Of a DNA stretch of 64,000 bases, positions 10,565 through 64,000 are shown one piece after another; position 1 is the stretch's first letter; each line of letters starts with the position of its first letter. The notes beneath the pieces are model-generated. The model did not search any database. It was not told the DNA's origin and saw nothing but the letters and a program-made list of their open reading frames with translations. Where the stretch lies: assembly GCA_965539975.1 (NCBI GenBank), contig CBETWA010000002.1:24244-88243 (forward strand). The letters are read 5' to 3'. The translations under genes were made by a program, and so were the position numbers. Source of the DNA: an uncultured bacterium (GTDB taxonomy: Bacteria > Bacillota > Desulfotomaculia > Desulfotomaculales > Desulfallaceae).

Positions 10565-10660
10565 TTCTTTAAAAAAATGGGTAAAGGGGGTGGCTACCAT
10601 ATCTCATCTTCTAGCGGGTGAACTTTTACCATGTATATGCAAGAAAGGAGCGGGATAAGT

Positions 10661-11509: not shown

Positions 11510-11530
11510 TCTGAAAAAATATTTAAAAAT

Positions 11531-11576: not shown

Positions 11577-11580
11577 TAAG

Positions 11581-12699: not shown

Positions 12700-12705
12700 A
12701 TAAGT

Positions 12706-24838: not shown

Positions 24839-25115
24839 ATCCTTTTAAGGCACAAACTTTTATATTGCGCCGGTAACGCTTGTTTTACTTTACATCACTT
24901 TACCATATTTAAGGCAGGAGTAAAGCATATTTAATCCAAACTATAGTTCAAAATTGTTTGGACAAATCCCAGATATTGCTTTAAGCTATAAATACGGAGG
25001 CTATTTCCGGAGTGGGGCAGGTCGGCCTGTTGCAATTGGGTTTCAAAAGCCCCCTTCTCCTCCCGGTGCTTTTACCGGGCACTGCCCCGAATTTTTAAAG
25101 AAGAGGAGATACATT

Positions 25116-25616
25116 ATGCCGGACATACTGTGTTTTACAAGAAACCGGTGCAACAGCGTGGAGCAGGTGGATGACCGGACCCTGCGGTCAACCTGCCGGA
25201 CCCAGGACAACCTCGTGGACGCCTGCGTTGAGATTTTGGTCAGGCTTCCCGACCTGGAAATCATCGAGGCGGAGTGCACAAGTACAAGACCACGCGAGGT
25301 AGATAACCTGGTTGCCCGGGATGATCTTCAGAAACTGGTGGGCTCCCGGGTGGGCCCGGGTATTAAAAAAATCATCTGGGGCGCCATCGGTCACTCCCCC
25401 TATGCCGAACAGGTGGCAGCCATGCTGGATGAATGCTGTAACGGGGTCATTCTTTCCTTTACCAAGGACGTGTTAAGCCAGGCGCCCAAGGACAAGCAGG
25501 GCGAAAAGGAATTTTTTGCCGCCATGGTCAGGTCAAATCCCCGCTTGTATAACAGCTGCGCCGCCCTGGCGCCGGACAGCCCCCTGATGGAGTTACTAGA
25601 ACAGGACAAGAGTTGA
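25116..25616 (+). CDS. DUF2889-like protein
   Basis: I prefer the ATG at 25116 after GAGGAG. The pattern FTRNR..V....D....ST.RTQD..VDA.VEI.V..PDLEI..A......RP is DUF2889-like, recalled from memory only. Confidence 0.45.
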   Translation: MPDILCFTRNRCNSVEQVDDRTLRSTCRTQDNLVDACVEILVRLPDLEIIEAECTSTRPREVDNLVARDDLQKLVGSRVGPGIKKIIWGAIGHSPYAEQVAAMLDECCNGVILSFTKDVLSQAPKDKQGEKEFFAAMVRSNPRLYNSCAALAPDSPLMELLEQDKS

Positions 25617-25631
25617 ATAATGGAGGTTACA

Positions 25632-42743: not shown

Positions 42744-44450
42744 TTAGTAGCTGATAGCCGCCTCCAGCTTGCGGGCGATTTTTCCCAAGCCGGGGGCGGC
42801 ATTTAACAGCATCCGGGTGTACTCTTCCCGCGGGCGAGCGGTGATTTCCCCTGCCGGGCCTTCCTCCACCACCCGGCCGGCCAGCATCACGGCGATGCGG
42901 TCCGATACCTTGCGGGCCAGGGCTATATCATGGGTTATGAAAAGCATGGCCAGCCCCCGTTTTTCCTGCAAGTTGAGCAACAGCTTCAGCACCTTGGCTT
43001 GCACGCTGGGATCCAGCGCCGAAGTAGGCTCGTCCGCAATCAACACCGCGGGGTCCAGCGCCAGCGCCCGGGCAATGGTCACCCGCTGGATTTCACCGCC
43101 GCTCAGGTGGTGCGGGTAAGTGTTCAGGAATTCATCGCCCGAAGGTAGTTCCACCTCTTCCAGGCATTGTTTGACTTTTTCCAACCTCTCTTCCAAAGTT
43201 CCTATTCCCTGCACGTCCAGTGGCTCCCGTACCGCGTCCAGCACCGTGGCCCGGTGGTTTATGGCGTCTGCGGGGTTTTGAAAAACCATCTGCACCCGGC
43301 GGTAAAAATGTTTATCCCGCTTTTTCACCGGCACACCGTCCAGCTTTATCGTGCCCGCAGTGGGCAATTCCAGCCCCATGACGGACCGGGCCAGGGTGCT
43401 TTTGCCCGAACCGCTGGCGCCGACCAGGGCCACAGTTTCACCCTCGTACAGGGTTAAATCCACGCCGTCCACCGCCCGCACGGTGCCGAAGTATTTCTTC
43501 AATCCCTGCACCTCAAGCACCGGTACGATACCGCCCCGGTGACAGGCCAGCAGGCGGTCACGGCGTTTAACCAGCCCGGGTACCTCCGCTGAGCACAGGG
43601 GTAGGGCCTGGGTGCAACGGTTGTGGAAACGGCATCCCGGTATGCCCCTTATGGTTCGCCCCTTGATCCCCAGCAGGTCCTTGGTGGTGGTCATGTCGGG
43701 GTAGCAGCGCAGAAGGCCCCGGGTATACGGGTGCCGGGGAGCGCCCAGCACCGCCGGCGAAGGCCCCGCCTCCACCGCCACACCGTTATACAGCACCAGC
43801 ACGCTGTCCGCCAGTGCCGATGCGGAAGAAATGTCATGCGTCACCAGCAGCATCGCCCGGTCGCGGCCCACCCCGCGAAGCAGGTCCAGTACCTGAGCCC
43901 GGTTTATGGCATCCAGGGATGCCGTTGGCTCGTCCAGAACCAGCAGGTCCGGGTCATTTACCAGGGCCATGGCAATCATGACCCGCTGTTTTTCGCCGCC
44001 GCTGAGCTGGTGGGGATACAACCCGTACCTGGCTGGTTCCAGACCTGTCTTTTCCAGAAGCCTGGCGGCGTGCCGCCGCGCCTCCTGTATGTTCATACGC
44101 CCGTGTTCCACCGCGGGTTCGGCCACCTGGTCGATAACCGGCAAAACGGGGTTCAGTGCCCCGGAAACGTTTTGAAATACATAAGAAATCTTGTTCCAAC
44201 GGATGCTTTTCAGGTTTTTCTCATCAAGAGACAAAACATCCACGCCGTCCAGCATCACCCGCCCGTTAATTTTGCCCGGCACCAGCCGGGCCAGTGCCAG
44301 GGCCAGGGTGGTCTTGCCCGCCCCCGATTCACCCACCACGGCCAGCGTCTCGCCCCGGCGGATGTTCAGGTTCAACCCTTCCAGCACCGGTTCCCCGCCG
44401 TAGGATACGCTCAAATCCCGTACATCCAGCAATACTTGGCCGAAAGCCAT
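42744..44450 (-). CDS. Fused double ATPase of a peptide/nickel-type (DppD-DppF-like) ABC importer
   Basis: There are two full ABC cassettes (GESGAGKTT...LSGGEKQRVMIA and GASGSGKST...LSGGEIQRVTIA). The ATG at 44450 overlaps the permease stop. The track extension to 44858 is rejected. Confidence 0.9.
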   Translation of the reverse strand: MAFGQVLLDVRDLSVSYGGEPVLEGLNLNIRRGETLAVVGESGAGKTTLALALARLVPGKINGRVMLDGVDVLSLDEKNLKSIRWNKISYVFQNVSGALNPVLPVIDQVAEPAVEHGRMNIQEARRHAARLLEKTGLEPARYGLYPHQLSGGEKQRVMIAMALVNDPDLLVLDEPTASLDAINRAQVLDLLRGVGRDRAMLLVTHDISSASALADSVLVLYNGVAVEAGPSPAVLGAPRHPYTRGLLRCYPDMTTTKDLLGIKGRTIRGIPGCRFHNRCTQALPLCSAEVPGLVKRRDRLLACHRGGIVPVLEVQGLKKYFGTVRAVDGVDLTLYEGETVALVGASGSGKSTLARSVMGLELPTAGTIKLDGVPVKKRDKHFYRRVQMVFQNPADAINHRATVLDAVREPLDVQGIGTLEERLEKVKQCLEEVELPSGDEFLNTYPHHLSGGEIQRVTIARALALDPAVLIADEPTSALDPSVQAKVLKLLLNLQEKRGLAMLFITHDIALARKVSDRIAVMLAGRVVEEGPAGEITARPREEYTRMLLNAAPGLGKIARKLEAAISY

Positions 44451-45307
44451 CAAACCACCTCGTGTTCTTCCTCCCCCAGCCTGGGGTCGGCAACCTCTTC
44501 CACAGCAAAACCGATATAAGTAAAAGCCAGCACAGTCAACGAAAGGGCCGCACCGGCGGGCAGCAGCCACCACTTCCATACATCCAGGTAGCAAAACTCC
44601 ATGGCATGCCGGATCATCAAGCCCCAGCTTACGGTGCCCGGCGCAGCTATGCCCAGAAAGGCCAGCCCCGCTTCGGTGACTACCGCCCGCCGGGCACCCT
44701 GGATCAACCCTACCATAATCACCGGGGCCAGGTCGGGCAGGATGTGCTTGCACAACACCTGCAGCTTGCCCGCTCCAAATGTGCGGGCGGCCTGCACGTG
44801 GGTCCTTTGTTTCAATGACAGTACCTGCGCCCTGATGACCCGGGCGCCCACCGGCCACCCCGTCAGCGCCAGCACCAGTATCAACAGCGGTATGCCGGGA
44901 CGGAGATAAGCGGCCGCAAGTATAATCACCAGTACCGGCGGGATGGCCAGCAGAGCATCTGTGATGCGGGTGACAACAGCGTCCGCCCGCCCACCCGCCA
45001 GTGCCGCGAAAGAACCTACAAGAACGCTAATCAGAGAAGTCAACAGAGCCGCGCCGGTGGCCACAGCCAGTGATGTGCGGGCCCCGACCACCAGCCGGCT
45101 AAATATATCCTGCCCCACGTCGTTGGTGCCCAGCCAGTGCTGGCCCGACGGGGGCTGCAACACCGCCTTGGAATGCTCGCCGGGCGGGTAAGGTGCAAGC
45201 CACGGCCCCAGAATTGCCGCCAGGACAACTATCCCCAGTAATACGAATCCAATCCTGGCCATGTTATTCTTTTTGACCCGCGCGACATAATTAATGTGCA
45301 TGGACAA
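44450..45307 (-). CDS. ABC importer permease (DppC/NikC/OppC-like)
   Basis: It has six TM segments and an EAA-like loop (ARTFGAGKLQVLCKHILPDL). Confidence 0.85.
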   Translation of the reverse strand: MSMHINYVARVKKNNMARIGFVLLGIVVLAAILGPWLAPYPPGEHSKAVLQPPSGQHWLGTNDVGQDIFSRLVVGARTSLAVATGAALLTSLISVLVGSFAALAGGRADAVVTRITDALLAIPPVLVIILAAAYLRPGIPLLILVLALTGWPVGARVIRAQVLSLKQRTHVQAARTFGAGKLQVLCKHILPDLAPVIMVGLIQGARRAVVTEAGLAFLGIAAPGTVSWGLMIRHAMEFCYLDVWKWWLLPAGAALSLTVLAFTYIGFAVEEVADPRLGEEEHEVV

Positions 45308-46265
45308 CCCTCGGATCCAGCCTGGTATACAGCAAATCCATAACGAAACTGACCGCCAGCACCGATACCGTCACCACCAGGAATACACCCTGCAAAACCG
45401 GATAATCCCTGGTCATCAGGGCAGTATGTAGTAAATGGCCCAGCCCCGGGTAGGCGAACACCATCTCCACGAAAAGAACGCCGGTGGCCATCCGGCCCAC
45501 CCGCAACCCGGTACGCGTTACCACCGGCAGCAGGGCGTTGCGCCCTGCGTGCCTGTACCGGATCACTCCCGGAGAAAGTCCCTTGGCCCGGGCCGTTAGG
45601 ATAAAGGGAGCCTTTAAAACTGTCACCATGGTGTTCCGGGTCAGCAAATACGCGCCGGCCAGGCCCGACAGAGTAAGGGCCGCTAGGGGCAGTGCCAGGT
45701 GGTGCAAAACGTCCAACCACAGGGCCGGGCCGCTGAGCCCGGCATACTGGGTCATGGCCCCGGAAAGCGGGAATATTCCCAGTGTAACTCCAAAAAATAG
45801 CAGCAAAAGTATGCCCAGGAAAAAGTCAGGCAAGCCGTTAAGCAGCATTATCCCTGTCATAATCATCACGTCCGGGCGGCGGCCCCGGCGCCAGCCCGAT
45901 TCAATGCCCAGCAATACACCCAGTATGGTGGACAGCACAATAGCCGATCCCGCCAGCAACAGCGTCCAGGGCAGTGCCCCGGACACCACTTCCAGAACCG
46001 GGGCATTGAAATAATAGGAGTAACCCAGGTCCCCCCGGGCCAGCGCGCCCAGGTACACAGCAAACTGTTCCACCAGCGAGCGGTCCAGCCCGTATCGCTG
46101 TTCCAGCTCGGCGCGCAGCCCGGGAGTCATGTGAACCAGTGCCTCGTCCCCGTAAATTGCCATCATGGGGTCCCCGGGCAGCAGCCTGGGCAGCAAGAAG
46201 TTCAGTGAAAGGATGATCAACAGGGCTACCAGGTAATTAACCGGGACGCCCGTTTTAAAGCGCAT
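45291..46265 (-). CDS. ABC importer permease (DppB/NikB/OppB-like)
   Basis: It begins like typical family members (NYLVALLIILSLNFLLPRLLPGDP) and has the EAA loop TARAKGLSPGVIRYRHAGRNAL. Confidence 0.85.
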   Translation of the reverse strand: MRFKTGVPVNYLVALLIILSLNFLLPRLLPGDPMMAIYGDEALVHMTPGLRAELEQRYGLDRSLVEQFAVYLGALARGDLGYSYYFNAPVLEVVSGALPWTLLLAGSAIVLSTILGVLLGIESGWRRGRRPDVMIMTGIMLLNGLPDFFLGILLLLFFGVTLGIFPLSGAMTQYAGLSGPALWLDVLHHLALPLAALTLSGLAGAYLLTRNTMVTVLKAPFILTARAKGLSPGVIRYRHAGRNALLPVVTRTGLRVGRMATGVLFVEMVFAYPGLGHLLHTALMTRDYPVLQGVFLVVTVSVLAVSFVMDLLYTRLDPRVVHAH

Positions 46266-46269
46266 GGTT

Positions 46270-47856
46270 TCACCTCTCGGGGTTCACAAAAGCCATCTTG
46301 TTCAGCGGTAGCGGTACCCCGGTACCAATACCGCCCGCGGTATAATAAAGCTCCACGCCACCATCGTGGCAGAAATACCACCGGGGGTAATACAGGCTTA
46401 AAGCGGGCACTTCCGCCGCGTATACCTCCTGAAGCCGGTCAACCATTTTCTTCCTGGCTTCCAAGTCCATTTCCTGCACCTGCTCCTCCAGCAGCTTGTT
46501 CAATTCCTGGTTTGCATTGTAGCGCGCGCTGTTAAAGTTTTCTCCGGTTATCATCTGGTTCATAAACACCGGGTCGCCGCCAATGCCGCCGTGCCCGCTT
46601 AAAGCCAGTTCAAATTCCCAGTTCTGCACCCTGTTGTCCAGGGTTTTAGCCTCCAGGCTCCGCAGTTCAACTTTTATACCCGCCCCGGCCAGCTGGACGG
46701 CAATAAGCTCGCCGTCCCGGGCAAACCGCTCGGAAACCAGAAGCTCCACTTCCAAAGGCCGGCCTTCCCGGTAAAAAACGCCATCCCGCAGTTCATAACC
46801 CAGTTCTCCCAGCAGTTCCCTGGCTTTTTCCGGGTTGTACCGGTACTGCTCCACCTTTGGGTTATGCCAGTGGGTATCCGGAGGAATCATGCCCGGGCTG
46901 GCGGTTACGGCATGGCCCCTGGCCACCACGTCCACCAGTTCCCCGCGGTCAATGGCATAAGCCAGGGCACGGCGAAACTCGGGGCTACTAAAGGGTTCTT
47001 TTTTGTGGTTGATCATAAGCTTGGCGTTCCAGAAACTTGGGCCGCTGATAACGGTAAACCCCGCTTTCTCCATGCCTTCCACCGTTTCCGGCTTGATCTC
47101 GGCAGCGTTCACCCCGCCCTTTTGCAACTCGGACATGGCCATTTCTTCGCTCACCTTGACAAAACGAATCCGGTCCACCAGCGGCCTGCCGCCGTAGTAA
47201 TCGTCATACGCTTCATACAGGTAGGTGCCGTGCTCGCGGCTGTAATCAACCAGCTTGAAAGGGCCGGTGCCCACCAGCGCCCCGGCACCCGTGAAACTTT
47301 CCGGCTCCTGTACGTCCCGCCAGATATGCTCGGGCAGTACGGGCATGGTACCTGCCACGTTTTCCAAAAACGGCGCGTAGGGTTTATCCAGTTTAATCTT
47401 GACTGTGTAATCATCAACCTCCGCCGCGGATTCCACCGCTGTAAGGTCAATCATCGAGTAGGGGTGCTCTTTCATGTAATTCACCGTAAACACGACATCC
47501 CGGGCGGTGAATTTTTCCCCGTCATGCCAGGTGATATCCCGGCGCAGGTTAAATGTGTATGTATTGCTGGCTTCGTCATACCACCAGTTCTCGGCCAGGG
47601 CGGGCACAAAGCCACTGGCGTCTTTCCATACCAGGGTATCAAATATAAAGCTCATGCGAATGTAACCCGGCCCGCGGGAGTAGTGGCCGTAAGGGCTGGG
47701 AAAACCCCAGTCGCCGGTGGAATCGGCAATAGTATATACCCGCGGCGAGTCACCCGCGCCACCCGCGGTATCCCCGCCCCGTTCGCTGCAGCCGGCCAAC
47801 AGCACAAGTGGTATGGCAAGCATAAAAAGTACAGGCAAAACAAAGCGCTTAATCAC
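46270..47856 (-). CDS. Family-5 solute-binding lipoprotein (DppA/NikA/OppA-like)
   Basis: I prefer the GTG at 47856, 9 nt after AAAGGAG. The signal peptide has the lipobox LLAGC. The product is a ~500-aa SBP_bac_5-like body. Confidence 0.85.
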   Translation of the reverse strand: MIKRFVLPVLFMLAIPLVLLAGCSERGGDTAGGAGDSPRVYTIADSTGDWGFPSPYGHYSRGPGYIRMSFIFDTLVWKDASGFVPALAENWWYDEASNTYTFNLRRDITWHDGEKFTARDVVFTVNYMKEHPYSMIDLTAVESAAEVDDYTVKIKLDKPYAPFLENVAGTMPVLPEHIWRDVQEPESFTGAGALVGTGPFKLVDYSREHGTYLYEAYDDYYGGRPLVDRIRFVKVSEEMAMSELQKGGVNAAEIKPETVEGMEKAGFTVISGPSFWNAKLMINHKKEPFSSPEFRRALAYAIDRGELVDVVARGHAVTASPGMIPPDTHWHNPKVEQYRYNPEKARELLGELGYELRDGVFYREGRPLEVELLVSERFARDGELIAVQLAGAGIKVELRSLEAKTLDNRVQNWEFELALSGHGGIGGDPVFMNQMITGENFNSARYNANQELNKLLEEQVQEMDLEARKKMVDRLQEVYAAEVPALSLYYPRWYFCHDGGVELYYTAGGIGTGVPLPLNKMAFVNPER

Positions 47857-47908
47857 TATAACACGCTCCTTTCCAAGCAAGAGCGGGTTCTTGACCCCCG
47901 GGAACTCG

Positions 47909-47960
47909 AAAAAAACACGGAAGCAGCCGCACATCCTCTTTTTGCAGCATACCTCCGTGG
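47909..47960 (-). terminator. Hairpin plus T7 run between the TsaA-like gene and the ABC operon
   Basis: On the minus strand the sequence is CACGGAGG...(28-nt loop)...CTTCCGTG followed by TTTTTTT. Confidence 0.45.
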
Positions 47961-48003
47961 TTTTAATCCGTCTATATTTTTCTGAAGTTATTTTCGGGTT
48001 ATT

Positions 48004-48450
48004 TTAGCCCGGGTTGAACCTGGCTTCATAAACCGCATCTATTTCGGGAGAATACGGTTTTATGTCCAAAAGCGGGCTTCCGTCCAGGGCATCCAACCCC
48101 CGGACTTTCAGGAGGTTTCCATTCACCTCCACCAGCTCTGCCATGCATAACGCTATGGGATTGGGGCGGTTCGGCGACCGGGTGGCGAAAACCCCTCTTG
48201 CAATTTCACTGAAGGGTGTGGTGGTCTGCAACTTGTTCCTGTCCGCCTGGTTACACCAGTACAGCACAATTAAATGTGAAGCTTTTTCCACATACTCCAG
48301 CCCGGGCAAGTACTCATCATATAACTCCAGGATACAAATGTCGCTCGACAAGCGTCCCTGCCGGGGAGCGTCTTGCCTTTTCTTGTAAGGAGTGTGAATC
48401 ACGCCTATGGGGGTTAAAACAAGGTCATTCCCACCGGTGTGTTCGTTCAT
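48004..48450 (-). CDS. TsaA/TrmO-family (UPF0066/YaeB) SAM-dependent methyltransferase-like protein
   Basis: Family motifs include LTPIGVIHTPY..RQDAPRQG, FATRSPNRPNPI and GSPLLDIKPY. Confidence 0.75.
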   Translation of the reverse strand: MNEHTGGNDLVLTPIGVIHTPYKKRQDAPRQGRLSSDICILELYDEYLPGLEYVEKASHLIVLYWCNQADRNKLQTTTPFSEIARGVFATRSPNRPNPIALCMAELVEVNGNLLKVRGLDALDGSPLLDIKPYSPEIDAVYEARFNPG

Positions 48451-48487
48451 GTAATCGCCCCGTTATTATTATAACTTGCCAAGAAAT

Positions 48488-49105
48488 TTACCAGCCGCGG
48501 GTATAGTCCTCAAAGCAATCCAGGCACACCGGCTTGCCGTCTTTCAACCTGGCCCGGGGTTCCATTACGCGCTCCCCGCAACCCGAGCACACCACCGAAG
48601 GGAAAAGGCGGGCCTTAGAAGGAAACCGGAAATCAATTTCCCGGACTTCGCAAAACTTTTCTTCCGGCATGTGCAGTATTTCTTCAATCCGCCGGGTTTG
48701 GATTTCCTGGAACCTGGCCTTTTCTTCGTCAGTAGCCGTACCGCCGAAAACCTTCTGGCGTAATGCAGTCACGCCCGGATCGGCCTGGCTCATAACATCC
48801 CTTACCGATATGCGGAGCGCCCGGTTCCCGTTACGGCTACCGAAGGTATACACCTGTTTTCCGGTATCACGGTAAATCAGGTTGCCCTTGCCTAGGGTGC
48901 AGCCCGTCAGTAGCATGATGGCGTCTACCCCGCAAGCGTCGTTTTCAACCACCGCCACCAGTTCCTCGTCGGCGGAGCGCATTTCCCCCAAGCGCTTCAG
49001 GGCGATTTCCGCCACCCTGTAACCTACGGCGAGGCCGGGACAACTGTGCCCGTGAAACTCAATGGCCTTTTCCCAGGGTGATTTCTCCATGCACATTCTC
49101 ATCAC
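48488..49105 (-). CDS. FmdE-family protein with a C-terminal zinc ribbon
   Basis: It contains FHGHSCPGLAVGYRV and a C-terminal CSGCGE...CLDC. The start is uncertain because several ATGs fall within the first six codons. Confidence 0.75.
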   Translation of the reverse strand: MMRMCMEKSPWEKAIEFHGHSCPGLAVGYRVAEIALKRLGEMRSADEELVAVVENDACGVDAIMLLTGCTLGKGNLIYRDTGKQVYTFGSRNGNRALRISVRDVMSQADPGVTALRQKVFGGTATDEEKARFQEIQTRRIEEILHMPEEKFCEVREIDFRFPSKARLFPSVVCSGCGERVMEPRARLKDGKPVCLDCFEDYTRGW

Positions 49106-54576: not shown

Positions 54577-55692
54577 TTGCTTAAAATACTGCATTTTGCG
54601 GATCTCCACCTGGGCGCAGCTTTCAGCCGGTTCGGGAGAAAAGGCGGCAAGCTGCGCGAGGGTTTGAAACACACGCTGGCAAATATCGTTAATACAGCGC
54701 GAAACGAAGGCGTTAACCTGGTAATAATAGCCGGCGACCTTACGGATTCCAACCTGGTGGCCCCGGCAACGGTTGATTTCATTACCAACCAGCTTAAAAA
54801 ACTGGATGTACCGGTTGTGGTACTGCCCGGGACGCACGACTGCCTGGATAAAAGTTCGGTTTACAACAGGCGGGAGTGGGATGGCCTGGGCAACCTGCAT
54901 ATCTTCAAGGAAGAGAGCGGGCAAACTTTTCACTTCCCCTCCCTGTCGCTGGCCGTGCACGGCAAGGCCAACAGATCCAACAAAAGCACCACCGGCCCGC
55001 TGGAGGGGCTGGCACCCGACCCCGGGTACCGGTGGAACATCGCCGTGGCCCACGGCTCACTCCAAATTGAAGGCAAATCGGCGGAGGACGATTTTCCCAT
55101 TACTTTTGACGAGCTGGCCAGTTGTGGCATGGATTACGTTGCACTGGGACACTGGCACGAGTATTTCGAGCACAGAACCGGCAACACAACAGCCTGCTAC
55201 CCCGGCTCGGCAGGCACGCTGAGCTTTACCCGCCCGGACAGCGGGACGGTCAACCTGGTTGAGCTTGCCGGTGGCGGGGTGAACATCAAAAGGCTCCCTG
55301 TTTCGTTCCACAGGTGGCTAAACATGGAGTGCACGCCGGACAAGCTTGAAGAAGTGCTGAATGAAAGCCAGGGACCTCAAATTCTTGCTAGTTTACGGGT
55401 GACAGGAAGCATTGATTATTTCAGGCCGGGTTTACTGGATGAGCTGTACAGCAGGTACAAAGACAACTACTTTTACCTGAACATTGTTCACGACCGGGCC
55501 GGCGCCGGCGGCGACTTCGATATAGACTATGCAGCATACCCGGAAAACACCTTTGCGGGGCAGTTTCTCATGCTGGCCAGGGCCAAAATAGACGCCGCCG
55601 CGAGCCCGGAAGAAAAAACCTTGCTGGAAAAGGCGCTGCAAGAAGGTTACAGGATATTGACCACGGGAGAGGTGAACCGGGTTGTTGATTAA
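54577..55692 (+). CDS. SbcD/Mre11-like metallophosphoesterase (YhaO-like)
   Basis: It has a TTG start. The calcineurin-like motifs are LHFADLHLG, IAGDLTD, LPGTHD and GHWH. Confidence 0.85.
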   Translation: MLKILHFADLHLGAAFSRFGRKGGKLREGLKHTLANIVNTARNEGVNLVIIAGDLTDSNLVAPATVDFITNQLKKLDVPVVVLPGTHDCLDKSSVYNRREWDGLGNLHIFKEESGQTFHFPSLSLAVHGKANRSNKSTTGPLEGLAPDPGYRWNIAVAHGSLQIEGKSAEDDFPITFDELASCGMDYVALGHWHEYFEHRTGNTTACYPGSAGTLSFTRPDSGTVNLVELAGGGVNIKRLPVSFHRWLNMECTPDKLEEVLNESQGPQILASLRVTGSIDYFRPGLLDELYSRYKDNYFYLNIVHDRAGAGGDFDIDYAAYPENTFAGQFLMLARAKIDAAASPEEKTLLEKALQEGYRILTTGEVNRVVD

Positions 55693-58141
55693 AAATATCC
55701 ACGTGAAAAACTTTCGCAACCTCGCCTCGCTAAACCTTGACCTGGGCCCGGGAATTACACTGATCAAGGCAAATAACGAGGGCGGCAAGTCATCCTTGCG
55801 CAAAGCCCTTGGTTACGCCTTTTACGTGGACCCCAAGAGCAGCAGCAGTGCCATTAAAAGCGAAGCCCGCTGGGGACAGGAAAACATGTACGAGATAGCC
55901 GCGGAATTCACCGCCGGGGACCAGGAATACAGGCTGGTAAAGGACTTTGAGACCAAAACTTCCGTGCTGGAAAACCTGTCCGCGGGTAAAAAATTAACCG
56001 GGAAAAAAGCCGTCACCGAAGCCATAACCGGCATTTTGGGCCTGCCCACACCCAACCTGTTGAAAAGTACCGTTTACTTTTCGGCCGAGGAACTGGGTAA
56101 CGTCAAAAATACGGCTGACCTGCGCCGGAGACTGGAAGAAAAGCTGACCGGCGTCGAAGGAGTCAGCGTTACCGACTTGGTTAACAAAATCGACAAATCC
56201 ATTAGTGACTTGCAAAAAGGTTTGTTCAGGCCGGCCAAGGACCCAGGCCCGGTAAAAATATACCAGGACAAACTGCTGGAACTAAAATCCAAGCTACAAG
56301 CCATAAAAGGAGAAGTGGAAAACACCGCTCAAAGCCAGGCAAGGCTTACCGACCTGAACATTGAAATAGAAAGCATCAAAAAATTGCTTGAACTGAAGCT
56401 CAGGGAGAACGAAAAATATGCCGGTTACAAAAAACTGAAGGAACAACTGGACGGGGCCCGAAAAGAACTGGAAAATTTCACGCGCCGTCTTGAGCTACAT
56501 GAAGAACTGACCGTAAAGAAGGAAGAATTATTGCAGGAAGCGCATTCCCTGCAGCGACAAATTGCAGATTACGAGCAAGCACTGGCGGCTGTCAACGAAT
56601 TAATGAGCGCGTTTACTGAAAACCACCGGGCGGACCGGCTGGCCCGGGAACTAAAGGCTAAAAAAACCAAAATTGACGAGGCCACAAAAACACTGGACGA
56701 TGCTGTTAAAGAGCGTGAGCAATGTGTAAATGTCGACCCCGCGGACCTGCAACAAAGCGAAAAACTGGCCACGCAAATCCAGGCCTTAAGCCTGGCCGGC
56801 CGGGAACAGGGATTTAAAATCGAGTTTAAGCCCCTGTCCGACATAGAGCCTGAAATACTGGTGGACGGCCAGACGCTCCGCTGGCAGCCGGGTGAGCCCA
56901 TCGAAGCCAGGGCCGGGGCGGTAATCACCATACCCGGGGTAGCACAGTTCACGGTCAGCAACAAAAATGACAGGGCTGCCGGAAACCTTGCGCGGGAGAG
57001 GGAACTGTCCCGCCAGCTGGCGGCGCTTCACGCCAAATACAACGTTGCCGGGCACGGCGAGCTAAAAGCGCTCCGGGACAAGTGGCTGGCGGCGGACCTT
57101 AAAGTCAGGAACGGCGAAAAAATACTGAGCGCCCTTCTGGAGGGTAAAACTATTCAACATTATAATAGCGAGCTGGACAGGGCGGAAAAACAAGCCGCCG
57201 AGGCCCGGGGAAAAATAGACGCGGCGGCGCCCCGGGCCCGCCAGTGGATTTTAAAACTCGAGCCGGAGCTTTCGTTACCCGCAGACCTGCAACCCATGCT
57301 GCCCGGCAAGCAAGCGGAATACGGGCACAAGCTTGGAGAGCTTAAAAACAAGCACCTGTCGATTAACAACCAGTACCAGCAAGCCATCGGCAAACTGGAA
57401 ACCCTCCCCTCGCGGAACGAGCTGGAAAAGGGCAAAAAAGACGCGGCACTCAAATTGTACGTTGCCGAAACGGCATTTGAAAAATTGAACCTGCCGGAAA
57501 TTTCGGCGGAGCAAATGGTGAGACTGGAAAATGAAATTGAAAACCTGAAAAAACAATTGGAAATAAAAATTAATGAAAAGGCGCGGCTGGAAGCTTCCAT
57601 CAGCGTGGCCAGGTACGGTATCGAGGACATCCTGGAATTGGAGGAATCCATCAGGCATTATGAAGATCTGCATAAAGAAGCCATTGAACGGGTGGAAGTG
57701 CTGAAAAAAGTACGCGACTTTTTTGAAGAGGCCCGGAAAAACACGCTGGCCAGGGTGGCCGGGTCCATTGGAAAACAGGCAGCGGAATATTTCAATGAAC
57801 TTACCGGCGGCCGCTACCCTAACATGGATATCAGCCCGGACGGGCTGGAAATTACAGTTTACTCCCGTGAAAAAGGAGAGCGCCTGGATATAGACAGTGA
57901 AATGTCCACGGGCACCAGGGACCAGCTTTATTTTTCCGTCAGGCTGGCGATGATCCCGGCCGTGGCAGCCGGCAGGAAACCGCCAATTATAATGGACGAC
58001 CCCCTGGTTTATTTCGACCCGGAAAGGAGAGAAAGGGCATTCAATATTCTGAAGAAGCTCGCCAGGGAACACCAGGTTATTATCTTTAGCTGTCACAATT
58101 ATTACGACACCCTGGCCGACAGGTGCCTGGCACTCCCTTAA
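55682..58141 (+). CDS. SbcC/Rad50-like SMC-type ATPase (YhaN-like)
   Basis: It has an N-terminal Walker A (NNEGGKSSL), about 550 aa of coiled coil, a C-terminal signature (MSTGTRDQLYFSVRLA) and Walker B (PIIMDDP). It overlaps the nuclease gene by 11 nt. Confidence 0.8.
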   Translation: MLIKNIHVKNFRNLASLNLDLGPGITLIKANNEGGKSSLRKALGYAFYVDPKSSSSAIKSEARWGQENMYEIAAEFTAGDQEYRLVKDFETKTSVLENLSAGKKLTGKKAVTEAITGILGLPTPNLLKSTVYFSAEELGNVKNTADLRRRLEEKLTGVEGVSVTDLVNKIDKSISDLQKGLFRPAKDPGPVKIYQDKLLELKSKLQAIKGEVENTAQSQARLTDLNIEIESIKKLLELKLRENEKYAGYKKLKEQLDGARKELENFTRRLELHEELTVKKEELLQEAHSLQRQIADYEQALAAVNELMSAFTENHRADRLARELKAKKTKIDEATKTLDDAVKEREQCVNVDPADLQQSEKLATQIQALSLAGREQGFKIEFKPLSDIEPEILVDGQTLRWQPGEPIEARAGAVITIPGVAQFTVSNKNDRAAGNLARERELSRQLAALHAKYNVAGHGELKALRDKWLAADLKVRNGEKILSALLEGKTIQHYNSELDRAEKQAAEARGKIDAAAPRARQWILKLEPELSLPADLQPMLPGKQAEYGHKLGELKNKHLSINNQYQQAIGKLETLPSRNELEKGKKDAALKLYVAETAFEKLNLPEISAEQMVRLENEIENLKKQLEIKINEKARLEASISVARYGIEDILELEESIRHYEDLHKEAIERVEVLKKVRDFFEEARKNTLARVAGSIGKQAAEYFNELTGGRYPNMDISPDGLEITVYSREKGERLDIDSEMSTGTRDQLYFSVRLAMIPAVAAGRKPPIIMDDPLVYFDPERRERAFNILKKLAREHQVIIFSCHNYYDTLADRCLALP

Positions 58142-58190: not shown

Positions 58191-58286
58191 TGGAGGGGAG
58201 AAGTCGGAATCGAACCGGACTCCCGCCTGGATCACAGGCAGGCCAACGGGTTTGCAGCCCGCGGGGGGACCATCCCCTTTCTCCCC
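58191..58286 (-). tRNA. tRNA-Sec-like tRNA with Cys anticodon GCA and U73 (8-bp acceptor, long variable arm, encoded CCA)
   Basis: My hand fold of GGGGAGAAAGGGGAUGGUCCCCCCGCGGGCUGCAAACCCGUUGGCCUGCCUGUGAUCCAGGCGGGAGUCCGGUUCGAUUCCGACUUCUCCCCUCCA is detailed in the finding. The T-loop is UUCGAUU. Its own promoter TTGGAA-N18-TAGAAT ends about 8 nt upstream. Confidence 0.8.
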
Positions 58287-58488
58287 ACACTATTCTAGCA
58301 AAACAAATTTTATTGTTCCAATAAAATTATTTTATATAACTCTACTTTCATAGAATAGTTTTTTATTGGTTTTCATAACACTGCGGAACACAAATAGCTA
58401 TTTTCGGGATAAGCGTACATGCCATGGCAAAACAACCTCGCCTACTGGGGGCCAAAATAAATAGCCCGCTCCTTGGCGGAAAAAACAG

Positions 58489-58522
58489 AGAGTTCCCTTG
58501 CCAACCAGGGAACTCTTTTTTT
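58489..58522. terminator. Orphan bidirectional terminator-like hairpin
   Basis: A 9-bp stem (AGAGTTCCC / GGGAACTCT) has T-runs on both strands. No annotated gene ends here. Confidence 0.45.
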
Positions 58523-58688: not shown

Positions 58689-59963
58689 ATGAGTGACTAC
58701 CAGGCAATGTGGCGAGAGCTGGGCTTGAACATGCAAGCCCACGACCAGCTGCTGCAGGCCCTTCCCCCCACTTACCATGATGTTTACCTGACCCAGCCCA
58801 ACAGGCCCCGGGGAATGGAGTATTTTGATTTTGTGGTGAATGAAATTCACGGCCTGAGAATTCAAGAGCTGCAGGAATATAAGAAATCAGGCGGTAAAGT
58901 TATAGGTGCCTTTTGCGTTTTCGTACCGGAAGAAATTGTGCGGGCCGCCGGGGGAATTTTCATCGGCCTGTGTTCCGGCATAGAAATAGGGTCCGCCGAG
59001 GCCGAAAAAGTATTGCCCCGCAACATTTGCCCGCTAATTAAATCATTCATGGGCTTCAAACTGGCCAAAGTATGCCCCTACTTCGAATCGTGCGATATGG
59101 TGGTGGGTGAAACAACCTGCGACGGCAAAAAGAAAGCATTCGAAATTTTAAACGACTACGTGCCGGTGCACGTTATGGAAACCCCGCAAATGAAAAAGGA
59201 GCGGGACCGCGCGCTGTGGCTGGAGGAAGTAAAAGACTTCGCCCGCATGGTGGAAGAATTAACCGGCCAAAACATCACGCCGGAAAACCTGGCCAAAGCC
59301 ATCAGCGAGGTCAACGGGAAGCGACGGGCCCTGCAGCGACTGTCCGAGCTGCGTAAAAACAACCCTGCCCCAATCAGCGGCAAAGACAGCTTGTTAATTG
59401 AACAAATTGCCATGTATGACAACGTACCCAGGTTTACCGCCAAGGTAAACGAGCTGTGTGACGAGCTTGAACAAAGGATTAATAACAACGCTGATTGCGC
59501 CTTTCCGCCCAATACCCCCAGGGTGATCGTGACGGGCACGCCCATGGCTATACCCAACTGGAAAGTACCTCATATTATTGAAACCAGCGGCGCCGTAATC
59601 GTGGCGGAAGAATTGTGCACGGGCCTGCGTTACTTTGAAAACGAAGTGACTGAAGGTGCCGGCGACATGGATACCATGATGAAAAACATAGCCGACAGGT
59701 ACCTGGGAATCAACTGCGCCGTGTTCACCCCCAACACCGGCCGCCTGGAAAAGCTGGTGCAACTGGTGAAGGACTACAAGGCGGACGGGGTAATCCACTG
59801 CACTTTATCCTTCTGCGACCCCTACGCGGTGGAAGCCAACAGGGTGGAGAAGGTGCTGAAAGAAGAAAACATCCCCCTGCTGAAACTGGAAACCGGCTAT
59901 GACCAGGAAGATACTGGACAATTGAAAACCAGGGTGGAAGCATTTATTGAAATGCTCCGCTAA
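58689..59963 (+). CDS. 2-hydroxyacyl-CoA dehydratase / benzoyl-CoA reductase BcrC-family protein, single-subunit type (double-cubane cluster protein-like)
   Basis: HgdB/BcrC-family pattern: GGKVIGAFCVFVPEEI, NICPLIKS, GETTCDGKKK, VTGTPM and HCTLSFCDPY. The start at 58689 is preferred. Confidence 0.8.
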   Translation: MSDYQAMWRELGLNMQAHDQLLQALPPTYHDVYLTQPNRPRGMEYFDFVVNEIHGLRIQELQEYKKSGGKVIGAFCVFVPEEIVRAAGGIFIGLCSGIEIGSAEAEKVLPRNICPLIKSFMGFKLAKVCPYFESCDMVVGETTCDGKKKAFEILNDYVPVHVMETPQMKKERDRALWLEEVKDFARMVEELTGQNITPENLAKAISEVNGKRRALQRLSELRKNNPAPISGKDSLLIEQIAMYDNVPRFTAKVNELCDELEQRINNNADCAFPPNTPRVIVTGTPMAIPNWKVPHIIETSGAVIVAEELCTGLRYFENEVTEGAGDMDTMMKNIADRYLGINCAVFTPNTGRLEKLVQLVKDYKADGVIHCTLSFCDPYAVEANRVEKVLKEENIPLLKLETGYDQEDTGQLKTRVEAFIEMLR

Positions 59964-59976
59964 GGAGTTCACCAAG

Positions 59977-60723
59977 ATGTATGCGGGAATAGACATAGGT
60001 TCCAGAACCATCGGCTTTGTGGGAATAACCGGTGGACAAGTGGAAATCACGGAGCTACTGGACACTGGGTTCGAACCTTTGAAAAAAGCCAAAAAACTGG
60101 TGAGTAACAAGTACAAACGCATAGTAGCCACCGGCTATGGGCGACACGCCGCCAAATCAGATTTCGCCCACGGCGTCATTACGGAGATCAAGGCCCACGC
60201 CCTGGGTGCGAAGCATCTTTTTCCCGAAGCGCGAACTGTACTAGATATCGGTGGCCAGGATACCAAAGTCATCCTGCTGGGAGAAAACGGTTCTGTGGTT
60301 GACTTTCAAATGAACGATCGCTGTTCCGCCGGCACCGGCAAATTTTTGGAGGTTATGGCCAGCGCCCTGGGTTTTGCCGGCGTTAGCGAATTCGGTGCAG
60401 CGGCGTTGCGGGGAAACCACGGTATTAAAATCAGCAACATGTGCACCGTTTTTGCCGAATCCGAAGCAGTATCGCTTATGCACAAAGGGGCCAGGCGGGA
60501 GGATATCGCCCTGGCGCTGCACATGTCGGTGGTGGAAAGGACCGCCGGTATGTTAAAGCGGGTCAATTTCGAGGCTCCCCTGGTGTTTACCGGCGGTGTG
60601 GCCAACAACCGGTGCATCGTAACCCTTCTGGCCGAAAAACTGGGAGTGGAGGTTCTTATACCACCAAACCCGCAACTTGTGGGTGCCCTTGGCGCAGCCC
60701 TTGCAGCATCAAATTCCAACTGA
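59977..60723 (+). CDS. BcrAD/BadFG-family ATPase (dehydratase activase / archerase)
   Basis: It contains MYAGIDIGSRT, GGQDTKVI, NDRCSAGTGKFLEVMA (bridging-cluster Cys) and FTGGVANN. I prefer the ATG at 59977 after AGGAG. Confidence 0.85.
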   Translation: MYAGIDIGSRTIGFVGITGGQVEITELLDTGFEPLKKAKKLVSNKYKRIVATGYGRHAAKSDFAHGVITEIKAHALGAKHLFPEARTVLDIGGQDTKVILLGENGSVVDFQMNDRCSAGTGKFLEVMASALGFAGVSEFGAAALRGNHGIKISNMCTVFAESEAVSLMHKGARREDIALALHMSVVERTAGMLKRVNFEAPLVFTGGVANNRCIVTLLAEKLGVEVLIPPNPQLVGALGAALAASNSN

Positions 60724-60882
60724 GTTAAGCCTAACAAAAAGGTCAACATGATGGATATTTACAAACATGCCCCCGGCAAGTTGAATTGCCGGGGGTTGTT
60801 TATTTTTTGCATGGTAACTGGCAACCTGAATCATATTAAAGATGTTAGCTCAAAACTATTCCCGCCATTTAGGAGGTCCGGC

Positions 60883-62502
60883 ATGACTACACAAGCAAAT
60901 GTCGCTTCAATCCTGCTGGAACAGCTTTCAGCCTGGGGAGTGAAAAACATATACGGCCATATAGGTGACGACGTGTTTTACCTTTTTGACGCCATCGCCC
61001 GGCAAAACAAGATCAATTTTTACCTGGTGCGACACGAGGAAACCGCCGCTTTCATGGCTTCGGCCCATGCCAAGCTTACCGGCGAACCCGGCGTTTGTAT
61101 TGCCGACGGTGGCCCGGGAACACTGCATTTGCTAAACGGGCTTGCGGACGCGTTTATGGACCGGGTTCCCGTTCTGGCCATTACCGGCCAGGTGGCGCGC
61201 AGGGACATAGGAACCGGCGAAAAACAATACTTGGACCAGCAATCACTTTTTCGGCCTATTGCTTCGTATACCACTTTGCTTTGCGACCCGGAGGCAACCA
61301 CCGATGTAATGGGTAAAGCTTTCCGCTGCGCCCTGTCTTCCCGGGGAGTTGCCCACGTAAGCATACCCATGGATGTATTTCCGTTGCCATGCCACGCAAA
61401 AATTAAACCATTCCCTCCATACCTTGAAACCTGCCCGGCATCACCGGCCGAAGTTATCGACAATGCCATAAGGATGATGGAAAAAGCCAACCGCCCGGTT
61501 ATACTGGTGGGCGAAGGAGGGCGCAAGGCGGGCGCAAAACTGGCACAGTTGTCCGCTGCCTGGGGAGCCGCCATTATAAACACCCTGCCGGGCGCAGGAG
61601 CAGTGGACAGTTCCGTACCCCTGTACGTGGGGGGCCTTGGGCACGCCGGAAGCCCTGCAGCCACCCGGGTCCTGGAACAGGCCGACCTGTGCCTGATCAT
61701 AGGAGCCAACTGGTGGCCGGCAAAGCACGTCCCCAGGGATATACCCATCATCCAGGTTTCCAAAAATCCCGCCGACATAGGCGCAACGACGCCGGTACCA
61801 TACGGCGTGGTGGGCGATACCGGGGCGGTAGTTGAATACATACTGGCCAACATGAGAACAAGCCCCAACCAGGAATGGGTTAAAAACGTAAGCCTGGCTA
61901 TCTCCCAGTGGATATCGCAGCTGGAAGCGGAGGCGGGTGTGCAAGGCACCCCGGTTCATCCCGCCGCGGTTATCCGGGCAATTCAACAGGTTATCCCTGA
62001 AGACGCTATAATATGCCTGGACACGGGGGACCACACCGTGTGGTTCGGGCGCCTTTTCCGCCCGGCCAGGCAGCGTGTACTGGTTTCCGGCAAGTGGCGA
62101 TCCATGGGATTCGGGCTCCCGGCCGCCCTGGCGTGTAAAATCGCCATGCCCGGGTCAAAGGTAATGGCGCTGGTGGGTGACGGCGGCCTGGCCATGAACA
62201 TGGCAGATTTTCTCACCGCCGTTAAATACAACATTGACATAACGGTGGTTGTGATGAATAATGGTAGCCTTTCCATGGAGAAGAACAAAATGCTGGCCGG
62301 GGGACTGGTACCCGAAGGAACTTCCCTGCATAACCCGGACTTCGCCGGGTTCGCCGAGTGTTGCGGTGGGCGCGGTTACCGGATACAGCAAACAGATGAA
62401 TTAAAAGATAAACTGCGGGAAGCCTTAAACAACGGGCTCCCTTCCATTGTTGATGTCATCGTATCGGATACCGCCGTGCCCGGCACCACCATGCCACAAT
62501 GA
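60883..62502 (+). CDS. Thiamine-diphosphate-dependent enzyme (pyruvate oxidase / acetolactate synthase family)
   Basis: The N-terminal Pyr domain is ILLEQLSAWGVKNIYGHIGD...HEETAAFMA. The C-terminal TPP motif is GDGGLAMNMADFLTAVKYNIDITVVVMNN. I prefer the ATG at 60883 after AGGAGG. Confidence 0.8.
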   Translation: MTTQANVASILLEQLSAWGVKNIYGHIGDDVFYLFDAIARQNKINFYLVRHEETAAFMASAHAKLTGEPGVCIADGGPGTLHLLNGLADAFMDRVPVLAITGQVARRDIGTGEKQYLDQQSLFRPIASYTTLLCDPEATTDVMGKAFRCALSSRGVAHVSIPMDVFPLPCHAKIKPFPPYLETCPASPAEVIDNAIRMMEKANRPVILVGEGGRKAGAKLAQLSAAWGAAIINTLPGAGAVDSSVPLYVGGLGHAGSPAATRVLEQADLCLIIGANWWPAKHVPRDIPIIQVSKNPADIGATTPVPYGVVGDTGAVVEYILANMRTSPNQEWVKNVSLAISQWISQLEAEAGVQGTPVHPAAVIRAIQQVIPEDAIICLDTGDHTVWFGRLFRPARQRVLVSGKWRSMGFGLPAALACKIAMPGSKVMALVGDGGLAMNMADFLTAVKYNIDITVVVMNNGSLSMEKNKMLAGGLVPEGTSLHNPDFAGFAECCGGRGYRIQQTDELKDKLREALNNGLPSIVDVIVSDTAVPGTTMPQ

Positions 62503-63195: not shown

Positions 63196-63460
63196 AGCGG
63201 CACCAGCAAAGAATGAAAATACTAGTGGGTATACCTGTTCCGGTCGAGCGATTTGCGGGAGCGCCGGTAACGGCACCCGGCGCAGCGAGGTTACGAAACC
63301 GGACGAGCGGCCAGGACGGCCGCGAGAGCCATAATCCGAACCATGGATGGTGAGTTTATGGCGGTCCGGTTTCGTCCGAAGCAAGCCTTGGTGCCGTCGG
63401 CGCGGGAGTATATGAGCGAGACGGAACAGGTATACCCATAATAAAAAGCGTTTTCCTGGT
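63196..63460 (+). repeat. Structured multicopy element, copy R5 (short form lacking two internal modules)
   Basis: The core runs from 63227 GGGTATACCTGTTCCGG to CGGAACAGGTATACCC at 63437. It keeps the termini, the GUAA hairpin, the AAACCGGAC/GUCCGGUUU helix and the GGUGCCGUCGGCGC arm. It lacks the 14-bp hairpin module and the ~110-nt 3' module. Confidence 0.8.
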
Positions 63461-63701
63461 GACATCCCCGTCTTCACCATATCCCGGCATGTAACCTTTG
63501 CAGCCGGGCGCGTAACCTGTTCAATCATTCCCATGACTGCTCAGCGACATGTCGAAGTGGGCGCACCTTCGCCCCTGCACTGGTATTTACTAACATAGTA
63601 TTTTATTCCAATCCAATGGGTTACGAGGGAGCCATATTTATGTTGTTGTTTACTTCCTTGCAAGTACAACTTCTGCCGCTTAAGTACTTGTCTTTCCAGA
63701 T

Positions 63702-64000
63702 TCACATCCCGGCTTTGCCGTATGCCCGTTCCAACAAACCCGCCAGTTCATCTATCAACGGCATCCGCGGGTTGGTAGTAGTGGACTGGTCGGCAAAGGC
63801 TTTTTCGGCCATTTCGGGTATTTTTTTGCGGAACAGTTCCCCGTCCACCCCGCACTCAGCAAAAGTGGCGGGTATATTTAAACTGGCCCTCAGTTCTTCC
63901 ACCGCCCGGATCAGGCTGTTAACACCCTCTTCCACCGTGTTGGCCGGCAGCCCGAGAAAAGCCGCCAGCCGCCTGTATTTTTCCGGCGCGTGAAAATACT
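63702..64000 (-). CDS. Iron-containing alcohol dehydrogenase, C-terminal part (gene continues beyond the window end)
   Basis: The frame is open to position 64000. The sequence ...YFHAPEKYRRLAAFLGLPANTVEEGVNSLIRAVEELRASLNIPATFAECGVD...ADQSTTTNPR is a typical Fe-ADH C-terminus. Confidence 0.7.
   Translation of the reverse strand, partial: YFHAPEKYRRLAAFLGLPANTVEEGVNSLIRAVEELRASLNIPATFAECGVDGELFRKKIPEMAEKAFADQSTTTNPRMPLIDELAGLLERAYGKAGM

Follow-up and report, generated by a model that had tools for sequence, protein, structure and literature searches.

Introduction

Some bacteria carry tRNAs that join the body of the selenocysteine tRNA (tRNA-Sec) to the identity of a cysteine tRNA. These selC* tRNA-Cys were defined as tRNA-Sec-like molecules whose discriminator is U73 and whose anticodon is GCA or UCA; their variable arm is long, and their acceptor and anticodon stems are lengthened. 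Their hosts are Clostridia, Bacilli, Thermodesulfobacteria, Thermodesulfovibrio and Deltaproteobacteria, always with selA, selB, selC and selD (PMC5389517). Here we describe a gene on the minus strand of a 64,000-nucleotide stretch of DNA from an uncultured bacterium (contig CBETWA010000002.1; the whole stretch is called the window below) that is a real, structurally conserved cysteine tRNA on a tRNA-Sec body. By analogy with a characterised homologue, it is probably a functional, non-canonical cysteine tRNA of the selC* class, also called tRNAReC.

The class is rare and not new: it was described in 2017-2018 and has been partly characterised biochemically in the same bacterial group. Vargas-Rodriguez et al. 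reportedly renamed selC* tRNA-Cys as tRNAReC in 2018. This later name is used in subsequent work (PMC11415595; PMC13582414). The selC* tRNA of Desulfomonile tiedjei is cysteinylated in vitro by cysteinyl-tRNA synthetase (CysRS), and a member from Desulfococcus biacutus with a UCA anticodon inserts cysteine at UGA (PMC5389517). According to two secondary descriptions, tRNAReC of Desulfotomaculum nigrificans is charged with cysteine, makes no use of EF-Tu and is delivered by SelB, so that cysteine is inserted at UGA codons marked by a selenocysteine insertion sequence (SECIS) (PMC11415595; PMC13582414). A paper of 2026 defines the class operationally by a length of at least 80 nt, a UCA or GCA anticodon and a discriminator U, and reports that GCA and UCA forms alike recode UGA if a SECIS follows (PMC13582414). 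The 8-bp acceptor stem acts as the discriminator between EF-Tu and SelB (PMC7609411).

A cysteine tRNA gene with the architecture of tRNA-Sec

The 96 minus-strand letters at positions 58191-58286 of the window (GGGGAGAAAGGGGAUGGUCCCCCCGCGGGCUGCAAACCCGUUGGCCUGCCUGUGAUCCAGGCGGGAGUCCGGUUCGAUUCCGACUUCUCCCCUCCA) agreed on re-reading with their transcription in an initial annotation, which had described them by eye as a cysteine tRNA mimicking the selenocysteine machinery and had proposed a check by ARAGORN and by models for tRNA-Sec. The only tRNA that ARAGORN found in the 64 kb is a tRNA-Cys with the anticodon GCA (58195-58286, minus strand). The Rfam model for tRNA-Sec (RF01852) spans the same interval from end to end with 48.1 bits (gathering score 47; E = 1.4e-6). 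With R1, a covariance model of the family built from 23 sequences including the window tRNA itself, one copy was detected in the window with a score of 108 bits. Folding of the single window sequence was weakly better than that of shuffled sequences (z = -2.24), and the fold therefore rests on the comparative test described below.

All of the sequence-level features by which the class is defined were found in the window gene. It has a GCA anticodon, a discriminator U73 and a tRNA-Sec-like branch with an 8-bp acceptor stem that satisfies the RF01852 model. Its anticodon stem of 7 bp with a 1-nt bulge is longer than the canonical one. At 93 nt plus CCA, with a covarying 8-bp variable stem, it also has the length (at least 80 nt) and the long variable arm that are expected of the class (PMC13582414). 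We therefore file the gene in the selC* tRNA-Cys / tRNAReC class, to which it would belong judging by its sequence. The combination of an 8+5 body with U73 and GCA thus supports the initial description, and the set of Mukai et al. (2017) named there is indeed the one in which the class was defined (PMC5389517).

Other assignments fit less well. A canonical tRNA-Cys is a 7/5 class-I tRNA with a variable loop of 4-5 nt, whereas the window gene has an 8-bp acceptor stem and a 21-nt variable arm. Bacterial selC is marked by UCA and G73; here GCA and U were found, although the model for tRNA-Sec is satisfied. In comparison with bacterial tRNA-Sec, the 8+5 acceptor/T branch, the long D stem with its tiny loop, the elongated anticodon stem and the long variable arm are shared, but GCA replaces UCA as the anticodon and U replaces G at the discriminator position. 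The expected route of charging differs as well: the window tRNA would be charged by CysRS, bacterial tRNA-Sec by seryl-tRNA synthetase (SerRS) followed by SelA. Mukai et al. (2016) is reportedly the source study for tRNA-Sec(GCA) of Aeromonas salmonicida, which likewise combines a tRNA-Sec body with a cysteine anticodon. That tRNA has selenocysteine identity and inserts selenocysteine at cysteine codons (PMC11415595), whereas the cysteine marks of the window tRNA would predict the reverse. The allo-tRNAs (Mukai et al. 2017), which were found by the same searches with tRNA-Sec models, also have a long variable arm and an extended acceptor stem. However, they carry a 12-bp branch (8/4 or 9/3), serine or alanine identity and diverse anticodons, where the window tRNA has 8+5 pairs, a cysteine anticodon and U73.

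Within the class, the deltaproteobacterial selC* tRNAs (D. tiedjei, D. biacutus) share with the window tRNA U73, GCA (or UCA), the 8-bp acceptor stem, the long variable arm and a bulged T stem. They are described as having a modified 8/4 branch with a bulged A51a, whereas the window tRNA has a T stem of five pairs and a bulged C. Their UCA forms with A1:U72 need a special CysRS*, while the first pair of the window tRNA is G1:C72. Downstream of the deltaproteobacterial genes comes selB*, in some cases also cysS*; in the window neither is present, and no SelB paralogue lies directly downstream of the tRNA as in the operon subtype. The closest counterpart is D. nigrificans tRNAReC, a member of the clostridial subgroup. 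It reportedly combines GCA and U73 with a body like that of tRNA-Sec, including the 8-bp acceptor stem and the long variable arm, its host is a Desulfotomaculia-type member of the Bacillota, and no dedicated selB* or cysS* stands beside the gene, all as in the window. This is a likeness of architecture and not of aligned sequence, and the biochemistry is that of the D. nigrificans member.

Collection of relatives

Relatives were collected from one genome per prokaryotic species with the degenerate pattern CTGCAAANCC, followed by a gap of 20-40 nt and GGTTCGAWTCC. At least 120 loci were returned. Among the matches listed, 67 loci carried ARAGORN tRNA-Cys(GCA) genes of at least 88 nt, and the taxa represented were Nitrospirota/Thermodesulfovibrionales, Syntrophobacteria and Desulfomonilaceae, Acidobacteriota, Cloacimonadota, Actinomycetota, Chloroflexota and Bacillota. 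The pattern scan thus places the Sec-like tRNA-Cys class in at least seven phylum-level groups, and the statement in the initial annotation that it occurs in a few anaerobes did not hold.

A second pattern, tuned to the T arm of the window tRNA, returned 28 metagenome contigs. Close relatives were found on 22 of them, 21 complete and one cut at the contig end. The window's own genome was returned by neither scan. Nearest to the window tRNA among the matches listed, at 92-95% identity, are L143, L135, L121 and the copy of Desulforamulus aquiferis (L097); Desulfallas thermosapovorans also has a close homologue (108.4 bits with R1). The window tRNA and 22 distinct Bacillota-type relatives from genomes and metagenomes were aligned (alignment A1, 23 sequences).

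Covariation supports the 8+5 fold

The structure given in Table 1 is conserved in the relatives. Standard pairs occupy 97.7% of the 749 cells of A1, a total that leans slightly toward the structure, as the D and anticodon stems were refined on the alignment before the pairs were counted. Changes on both sides of a pair were observed for 20 of the 33 pairs. None of 500 column shuffles of A1 reached any of five measures, and pairing fell to 44-62% when the partners were shifted by 1-3 columns. None of the 33 predicted pairs is broken in the window copy.

The 8-bp acceptor stem that had been drawn by hand is borne out by covariation. Its cells are paired in 99.5% of cases and seven of the eight pairs show compensatory change; the eighth pair switches between A-U (19 sequences) and G-C (four sequences). 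An alternative 7/6 fold, in which U85 pairs with A66 instead of A8, was discarded, since A66 would stand opposite C wherever G-C occupies this position. Between the acceptor stem and the D stem there is just one nucleotide, A9. The D arm stands as a 5-bp stem whose closing pair covaries (C-G, G-C, A-U, U-G), with a loop of 3 nt in the window and 4 nt in most relatives. For the anticodon arm, GCA within the loop CUGCAAA was read correctly, but the proposed 5-bp stem proved too short: three outer pairs (A1 columns 28:49, 29:48 and 30:47) covary (CG/UA; AU/GC/GU), and the stem has 7 bp with a bulge of one nucleotide, U41, in its 3′ strand. The anticodon loop is invariant across A1. This invariance of GCA is partly by construction, since both collection patterns required it.

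In the variable stem, 94.4% of the cells are paired and three pairs show compensatory change, consistent with the 8 bp and the 5-nt loop assigned before. The T stem is paired in 99.1% of the cells, with covariation at A1 columns 75:90 and 77:89, and its bulge, also part of the earlier assignment, is missing only in the Desulfitispora copy (L053). The discriminator and the encoded CCA, both read earlier from the window alone, are conserved as well, U73 in 22 of 23 A1 sequences and CCA in 27 of 28 copies extracted.

Two copies deviate. The copy of Desulforamulus aquiferis Bs105 (L097, 5572-5668), the closest one from a named isolate with 92.5% identity, is mispaired at acceptor pair 7 (U-U) and at the pair that closes the anticodon loop (A-C). 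It was missed by ARAGORN yet scored 97.5 bits with R1, and its A-C mismatch also occurs in L124, L134 and L137. The copy in a Bacillota metagenome-assembled genome (MAG; L089, 5676-5771) has A as its discriminator, lacks an encoded CCA, is mispaired (C-A) in the T stem and may be an identity-shifted or decaying variant.

Decay has also to be considered for the window gene, which could be a degenerating duplicate of selC. It departs from the tRNA-Sec consensus at the first anticodon base and at the discriminator, and the D. aquiferis copy has two stem mismatches and is overlooked by ARAGORN. However, all pairs of the window copy are intact, promoter and CCA are kept, and 20 pairs carry compensatory substitutions. 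Abundant compensatory change across 23 sequences rules out a decaying pseudogene, and we hold this origin to be extremely unlikely.

Table 1. Features of the window around the tRNA gene, with positions in the window and the basis of each assignment
Feature	Position	Strand	Basis or remark
tRNAReC / selC*-type tRNA-Cys(GCA) gene (putative class), 93 nt + encoded CCA	58191..58286	(-)	ARAGORN, Rfam tRNA-Sec, family covariance model R1
Acceptor stem, 5′ strand GGGGAGAA (nt 1-8)	58279..58286	(-)	A1 pair count
Acceptor stem, 3′ strand UUCUCCCC (nt 85-92)	58195..58202	(-)	A1 pair count
D arm (nt 10-22), 5-bp stem GGGGA/UCCCC, 3-nt loop UGG	58265..58277	(-)	A1 pairs 10:27 to 14:23
Anticodon arm (nt 23-44), 7-bp stem, U41 bulged, loop CUGCAAA	58243..58264	(-)	A1
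Anticodon GCA (nt 32-34)	58253..58255	(-)	Sequence and ARAGORN
Variable arm (nt 45-65), 8-bp stem CCUGCCUG/CAGGCGGG, loop UGAUC	58222..58242	(-)	A1
T arm (nt 67-84), 5-bp stem, bulged C69 (58218), loop UUCGAUU	58203..58220	(-)	A1
Discriminator U73 (58194) and encoded CCA (58191-58193)	58191..58194	(-)	Sequence read
Predicted sigma-70-type promoter, TTGGAA-18 nt-TG-extended TAGAAT	58292..58321	(-)	Consensus match
Rad50/SbcC-like ATPase gene	55682-58141	convergent to tRNA	Ends 50 nt from tRNA 3′ end
SbcD-like gene	54577-55692		Partner of Rad50/SbcC-like gene
Double-cubane-cluster reductase (DCCP, HGD-D family)	58689..59963	(+)	NCBIfam NF040772, 501 bits vs 350; Pfam HGD-D
DCCP activase (BcrAD/BadFG ATPase)	59947..60723	(+)	Pfam PF01869, 161 bits
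TwoAYGGAY RNA (Rfam RF01731)	63253-63411	(+)	Full-length, 51.3 bits vs gathering score 43

Proposed charging and delivery of the tRNA

The window gene encodes a structurally constrained RNA in which the body of a bacterial tRNA-Sec is combined with U73 and GCA, the main pair of identity marks for CysRS. If it behaves like its D. nigrificans homologue, it would be charged with cysteine by the ordinary CysRS, and its 8-bp acceptor stem would lead to rejection by EF-Tu, to which the bulged T stem may add. SelB would then carry the Cys-tRNA to ribosomes paused at a SECIS-marked UGA, with the result that cysteine is incorporated in place of selenocysteine; UGC and UGU codons would presumably be served likewise by the SelB-delivered tRNA. 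The role would most likely be that of a selenium-independent back-up, or of a tuning device, for selenoprotein synthesis.

Several points weigh against this reading. The long variable arm is the main determinant for SerRS. The U73 is accepted as compatible with serine in allo-tRNAs (PMC5389517), and mischarging with serine may occur. Bacillota-type loci lack the dedicated SelB* of other phyla (91 loci mapped, see below). In the 64-kb window, no selA, selB or selB*, selD, cysS or cysS*, yedE or yedF was found by Pfam and NCBIfam searches on 37 open reading frames (ORFs) and by tblastn. The tblastn queries were representatives of SelB*, YedE, YedF, LysR, HdrA and FdhA, and the SelB* representative gave no match in the window. 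A scan of the window for in-frame TGA codons yielded no convincing selenoprotein gene; the candidates, among them the FmdE-like gene (48488-49105) and a gene pair (24954-26744), were rejected as adjacent same-frame genes or non-coding upstream sequence. As the window holds neither genes of the selenocysteine machinery nor a convincing gene with in-frame UGA, the use of selenocysteine by the host is assumed.

The serine determinants could mean that the tRNA is charged by SerRS via its variable arm, that SelA converts the serine to selenocysteine and that SelB inserts selenocysteine at UGC/UGU or UGA. The fit of the body to RF01852, with its tRNA-Sec-like D arm and 8+5 acceptor/T branch, and a U73 that SerRS is thought to tolerate (PMC5389517) would suit such a route, and Sec tRNAs with a GCA anticodon exist, that of A. 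salmonicida working in this way (PMC11415595; PMC8124441). On the other hand, U73 replaces G73 in 22 of 23 sequences, and the cysteine identity elements were the very ground on which the class was separated from tRNA-Sec. The D. tiedjei member is cysteinylated in vitro (PMC5389517), and the D. nigrificans member is reported to insert cysteine (PMC11415595). Conversion of serine to selenocysteine on this tRNA is therefore unlikely in our view.

Charging with cysteine could also lead to the ordinary EF-Tu-dependent pathway, with the tRNA serving as an oddly shaped isoacceptor for UGU and UGC across the proteome. ARAGORN types the gene as tRNA-Cys, and U73 and GCA are canonical CysRS determinants (PMC5389517). 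Yet an 8-bp acceptor stem lowers the affinity for EF-Tu approximately 100-fold in tRNA-Sec (PMC7609411), and the bulged C breaks the T stem in the region that EF-Tu contacts (textbook knowledge). The D. nigrificans homologue is reported not to bind EF-Tu (PMC11415595), and the gene neighbourhoods of the class are related to selenium and not to translation. A role as a general isoacceptor thus appears very unlikely, and delivery of cysteine by SelB is the reading that we carry forward.

Promoter and surroundings in the window

The promoter TTGGAA-N18-TAGAAT noted in the initial annotation is present as a consensus match and has a TG extension. One such match was counted in the 800-bp region, against a mean of 1.8 after shuffling, and there is no excess. 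The -10 box ends 5 nt before nucleotide 1 of the tRNA. When this stretch (window 58287-58297) was compared with the 50 nt upstream of the relatives, a -10-like box ending 5-7 nt before +1 was seen in roughly half of them. With this spacing, the primary transcript is predicted to have a very short 5′ leader or none, an uncommon situation among bacterial tRNAs. The window tRNA would be a stand-alone unit with a predicted start at or very near the mature 5′ end.

The reductase and activase genes are encoded divergently from the tRNA. The tRNA promoter and the start of the reductase gene are 402 nt apart, and this spacer holds a 10-bp G+C-rich palindromic hairpin with a T run (58489-58516), which resembles a terminator on both strands; there is no obvious upstream gene to terminate on either strand. 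The window DCCP has a fully identical counterpart in the protein database (P0001, encoded on a 138-kb contig); it is 84% identical to that of Desulfoscipio geothermicus, 83% to that of Desulfallas thermosapovorans and 72-74% to those of Pelotomaculum species. The window therefore derives from a Desulfotomaculia-type Bacillota anaerobe, the group of the characterised clostridial tRNAReC. Further genes that fit an anaerobe are an [FeFe] hydrogenase with the maturases HydE, HydF and HydG, TatC and an Opp-type transporter.

In three metagenome loci (L132, L133, L140), the tRNA directly adjoins an Opp-type ABC transporter and an FmdE-like gene, and this region has 64-74% DNA identity to window 42857-49099 (region 42744-49105). 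The Opp/FmdE genes of the window lie 9-15 kb from the tRNA, which implies that the intervening genes (DUF362, an HdrD-like protein, SbcCD) were inserted or rearranged. Farther away, the TwoAYGGAY RNA is located between a gene for a TPP enzyme (60748-62502) and the ORF 63616-63993. An IS-type transposase with an rve integrase core (11589-12650, minus strand) lies within 10631-13452, flanked by paralogues of a poly-gamma-glutamate hydrolase (10631-11509, plus strand; 12706-13452, minus strand).

Selenium-linked neighbourhoods of relatives

Eight reference proteins were mapped onto 91 loci bearing such a tRNA, the reductase being counted within 8 kb. Of the 91 loci, 25 have a SelB paralogue adjacent to the tRNA, on the same strand and a median of approximately 30 nt downstream. 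It is the selB* of Mukai et al. In 2017, this paralogue was stated to be confined to Syntrophobacterales and Desulfobacterales (PMC5389517). In our set it also occurs in Nitrospirota (L008, L037, L079), Cloacimonadales (L085) and a Coriobacteriia MAG (L102), and its adjacency to the tRNA is thus wider than stated, extending to several other phyla. In L102, the gene order is selB-like, tRNA, yedE.

The double-cubane reductase was found in 14 of the 91 loci (13 besides the window) and the activase in ten (nine besides the window). The other neighbours were YedF-like genes (10), seleno_YedE (9), LysR (8), FdhA (5) and HdrA (5), with YedF-like genes and LysR regulators occurring in Nitrospirota loci. 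Reductase or activase genes accompany the tRNA in three phyla, Bacillota, Nitrospirota and Desulfobacterota (besides the window, L008, L018, L037, L075, L079, L087, L091, L093, L111, L122 and L151), and yedE, yedF or selB* often follows directly downstream. The reductase and the tRNA are arranged divergently with a gap of 173-512 nt in the window, L122 (Bacillota-type), L008, L037 and L079 (Nitrospirota) and L111 (Desulfomonile). The tRNA-adjacent reductases share 51-79% amino-acid identity with that of the window, and no in-frame stop was found within the coding sequence of the 13 tRNA-adjacent homologues that would mark the reductase as a selenoprotein.

This adjacency is not universal: Desulfoscipio geothermicus, Pelotomaculum thermopropionicum, Sporotomaculum syntrophicum and Desulfocucumis palustris have the reductase with no such tRNA nearby. 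Of 970 high-scoring NF040772 proteins, 955 are in assemblies that contain SelD; the family has no known link to selenium and is carried by 4.7% of genomes (Haft, bioRxiv 2022). The reductase stands beside 15% of the tRNA loci against a naive expectation of approximately 1%, a rough estimate that is uncorrected for shared ancestry. The divergent reductase is possibly linked to the tRNA in function.

On the other side of the tRNA, seleno_YedE (TIGR04112, 485 bits vs a cut-off of 200) begins 9-24 nt after the CCA on the same strand in eight Bacillota-type loci. The loci with yedE downstream are L046, L122, L124/L134/L137, L128, L131/L146 and L151 (Desulfallas thermosapovorans, 4301-5700). The gap holds only a Shine-Dalgarno sequence, so that the tRNA apparently forms the 5′ end of the yedE (and TusA/yedF) transcript. 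Desulfallas thermosapovorans has the full module, with the activase and the reductase on one strand and the tRNA, yedE and a TusA-family gene on the other. Compared with it, the window looks like the same module minus the yedE/TusA side. The main texts of Mukai 2017 and of a 2020 review, the parts of this literature compared, do not mention yedE (the supplements and a 2018 survey lay outside the comparison), nor does the 2017 main text, its supplement likewise aside, mention the double-cubane reductase.

Such a position raises the question of whether the RNA acts mainly outside translation, as a structured leader, processing signal or sensor of yedE/yedF or selB* transcripts, the window copy being a remnant after loss of the genes downstream. 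The short distance to yedE (approximately 10-25 nt) in the eight loci and in Desulfallas thermosapovorans, where no terminator was noticed, would fit this, as would the window, which keeps the DCCP/activase side and has a convergent SbcC-type gene at the position of yedE. However, co-transcripts of tRNA and mRNA are ordinary, as in the thrU-tufB operon of E. coli (textbook knowledge). Selection acts on the features of a complete tRNA (invariant anticodon loop, T loop, U73, encoded CCA), which suggests that the RNA is aminoacylated and decodes. Activity in translation is reported for relatives (PMC5389517; PMC11415595), and the window copy, with no yedE, still has its own promoter and an intact fold. 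We therefore consider a mainly regulatory function quite unlikely and retain the interpretation as a cysteine tRNA that SelB would deliver.

Discussion

Tentatively, and with considerable doubt, tRNAReC may be seen as more than a spare decoding tRNA, namely as part of a conserved, horizontally mobile module for the handling of selenium. Such a module may run from activase to reductase and, in the divergent direction, from the tRNA to yedE and yedF/TusA or to selB*. We know of no physiological substrate of the double-cubane reductase; in such a module, a selenium compound would be what it acts on. The tRNA and the selenium importer would share one transcript, whose promoter initiates at the 5′ end of the tRNA. 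If true, this would tie back-up decoding with cysteine in place of selenocysteine to the response to selenium starvation.

The window copy brings no new principle and is one more intact clostridial member. What is gained is that comparison now proves the 8+5 fold in the Bacillota subgroup. The class as such lets a cell read selenocysteine codons as cysteine via the elongation factor for selenocysteine, a natural case of deliberate, site-specific recoding, and tRNAs of the tRNAReC type are useful orthogonal scaffolds for engineering of the genetic code. The recurrent neighbourhood of reductase and selenium-transport genes could bear both on the purpose of tRNAReC in vivo and on the function of the double-cubane enzymes.

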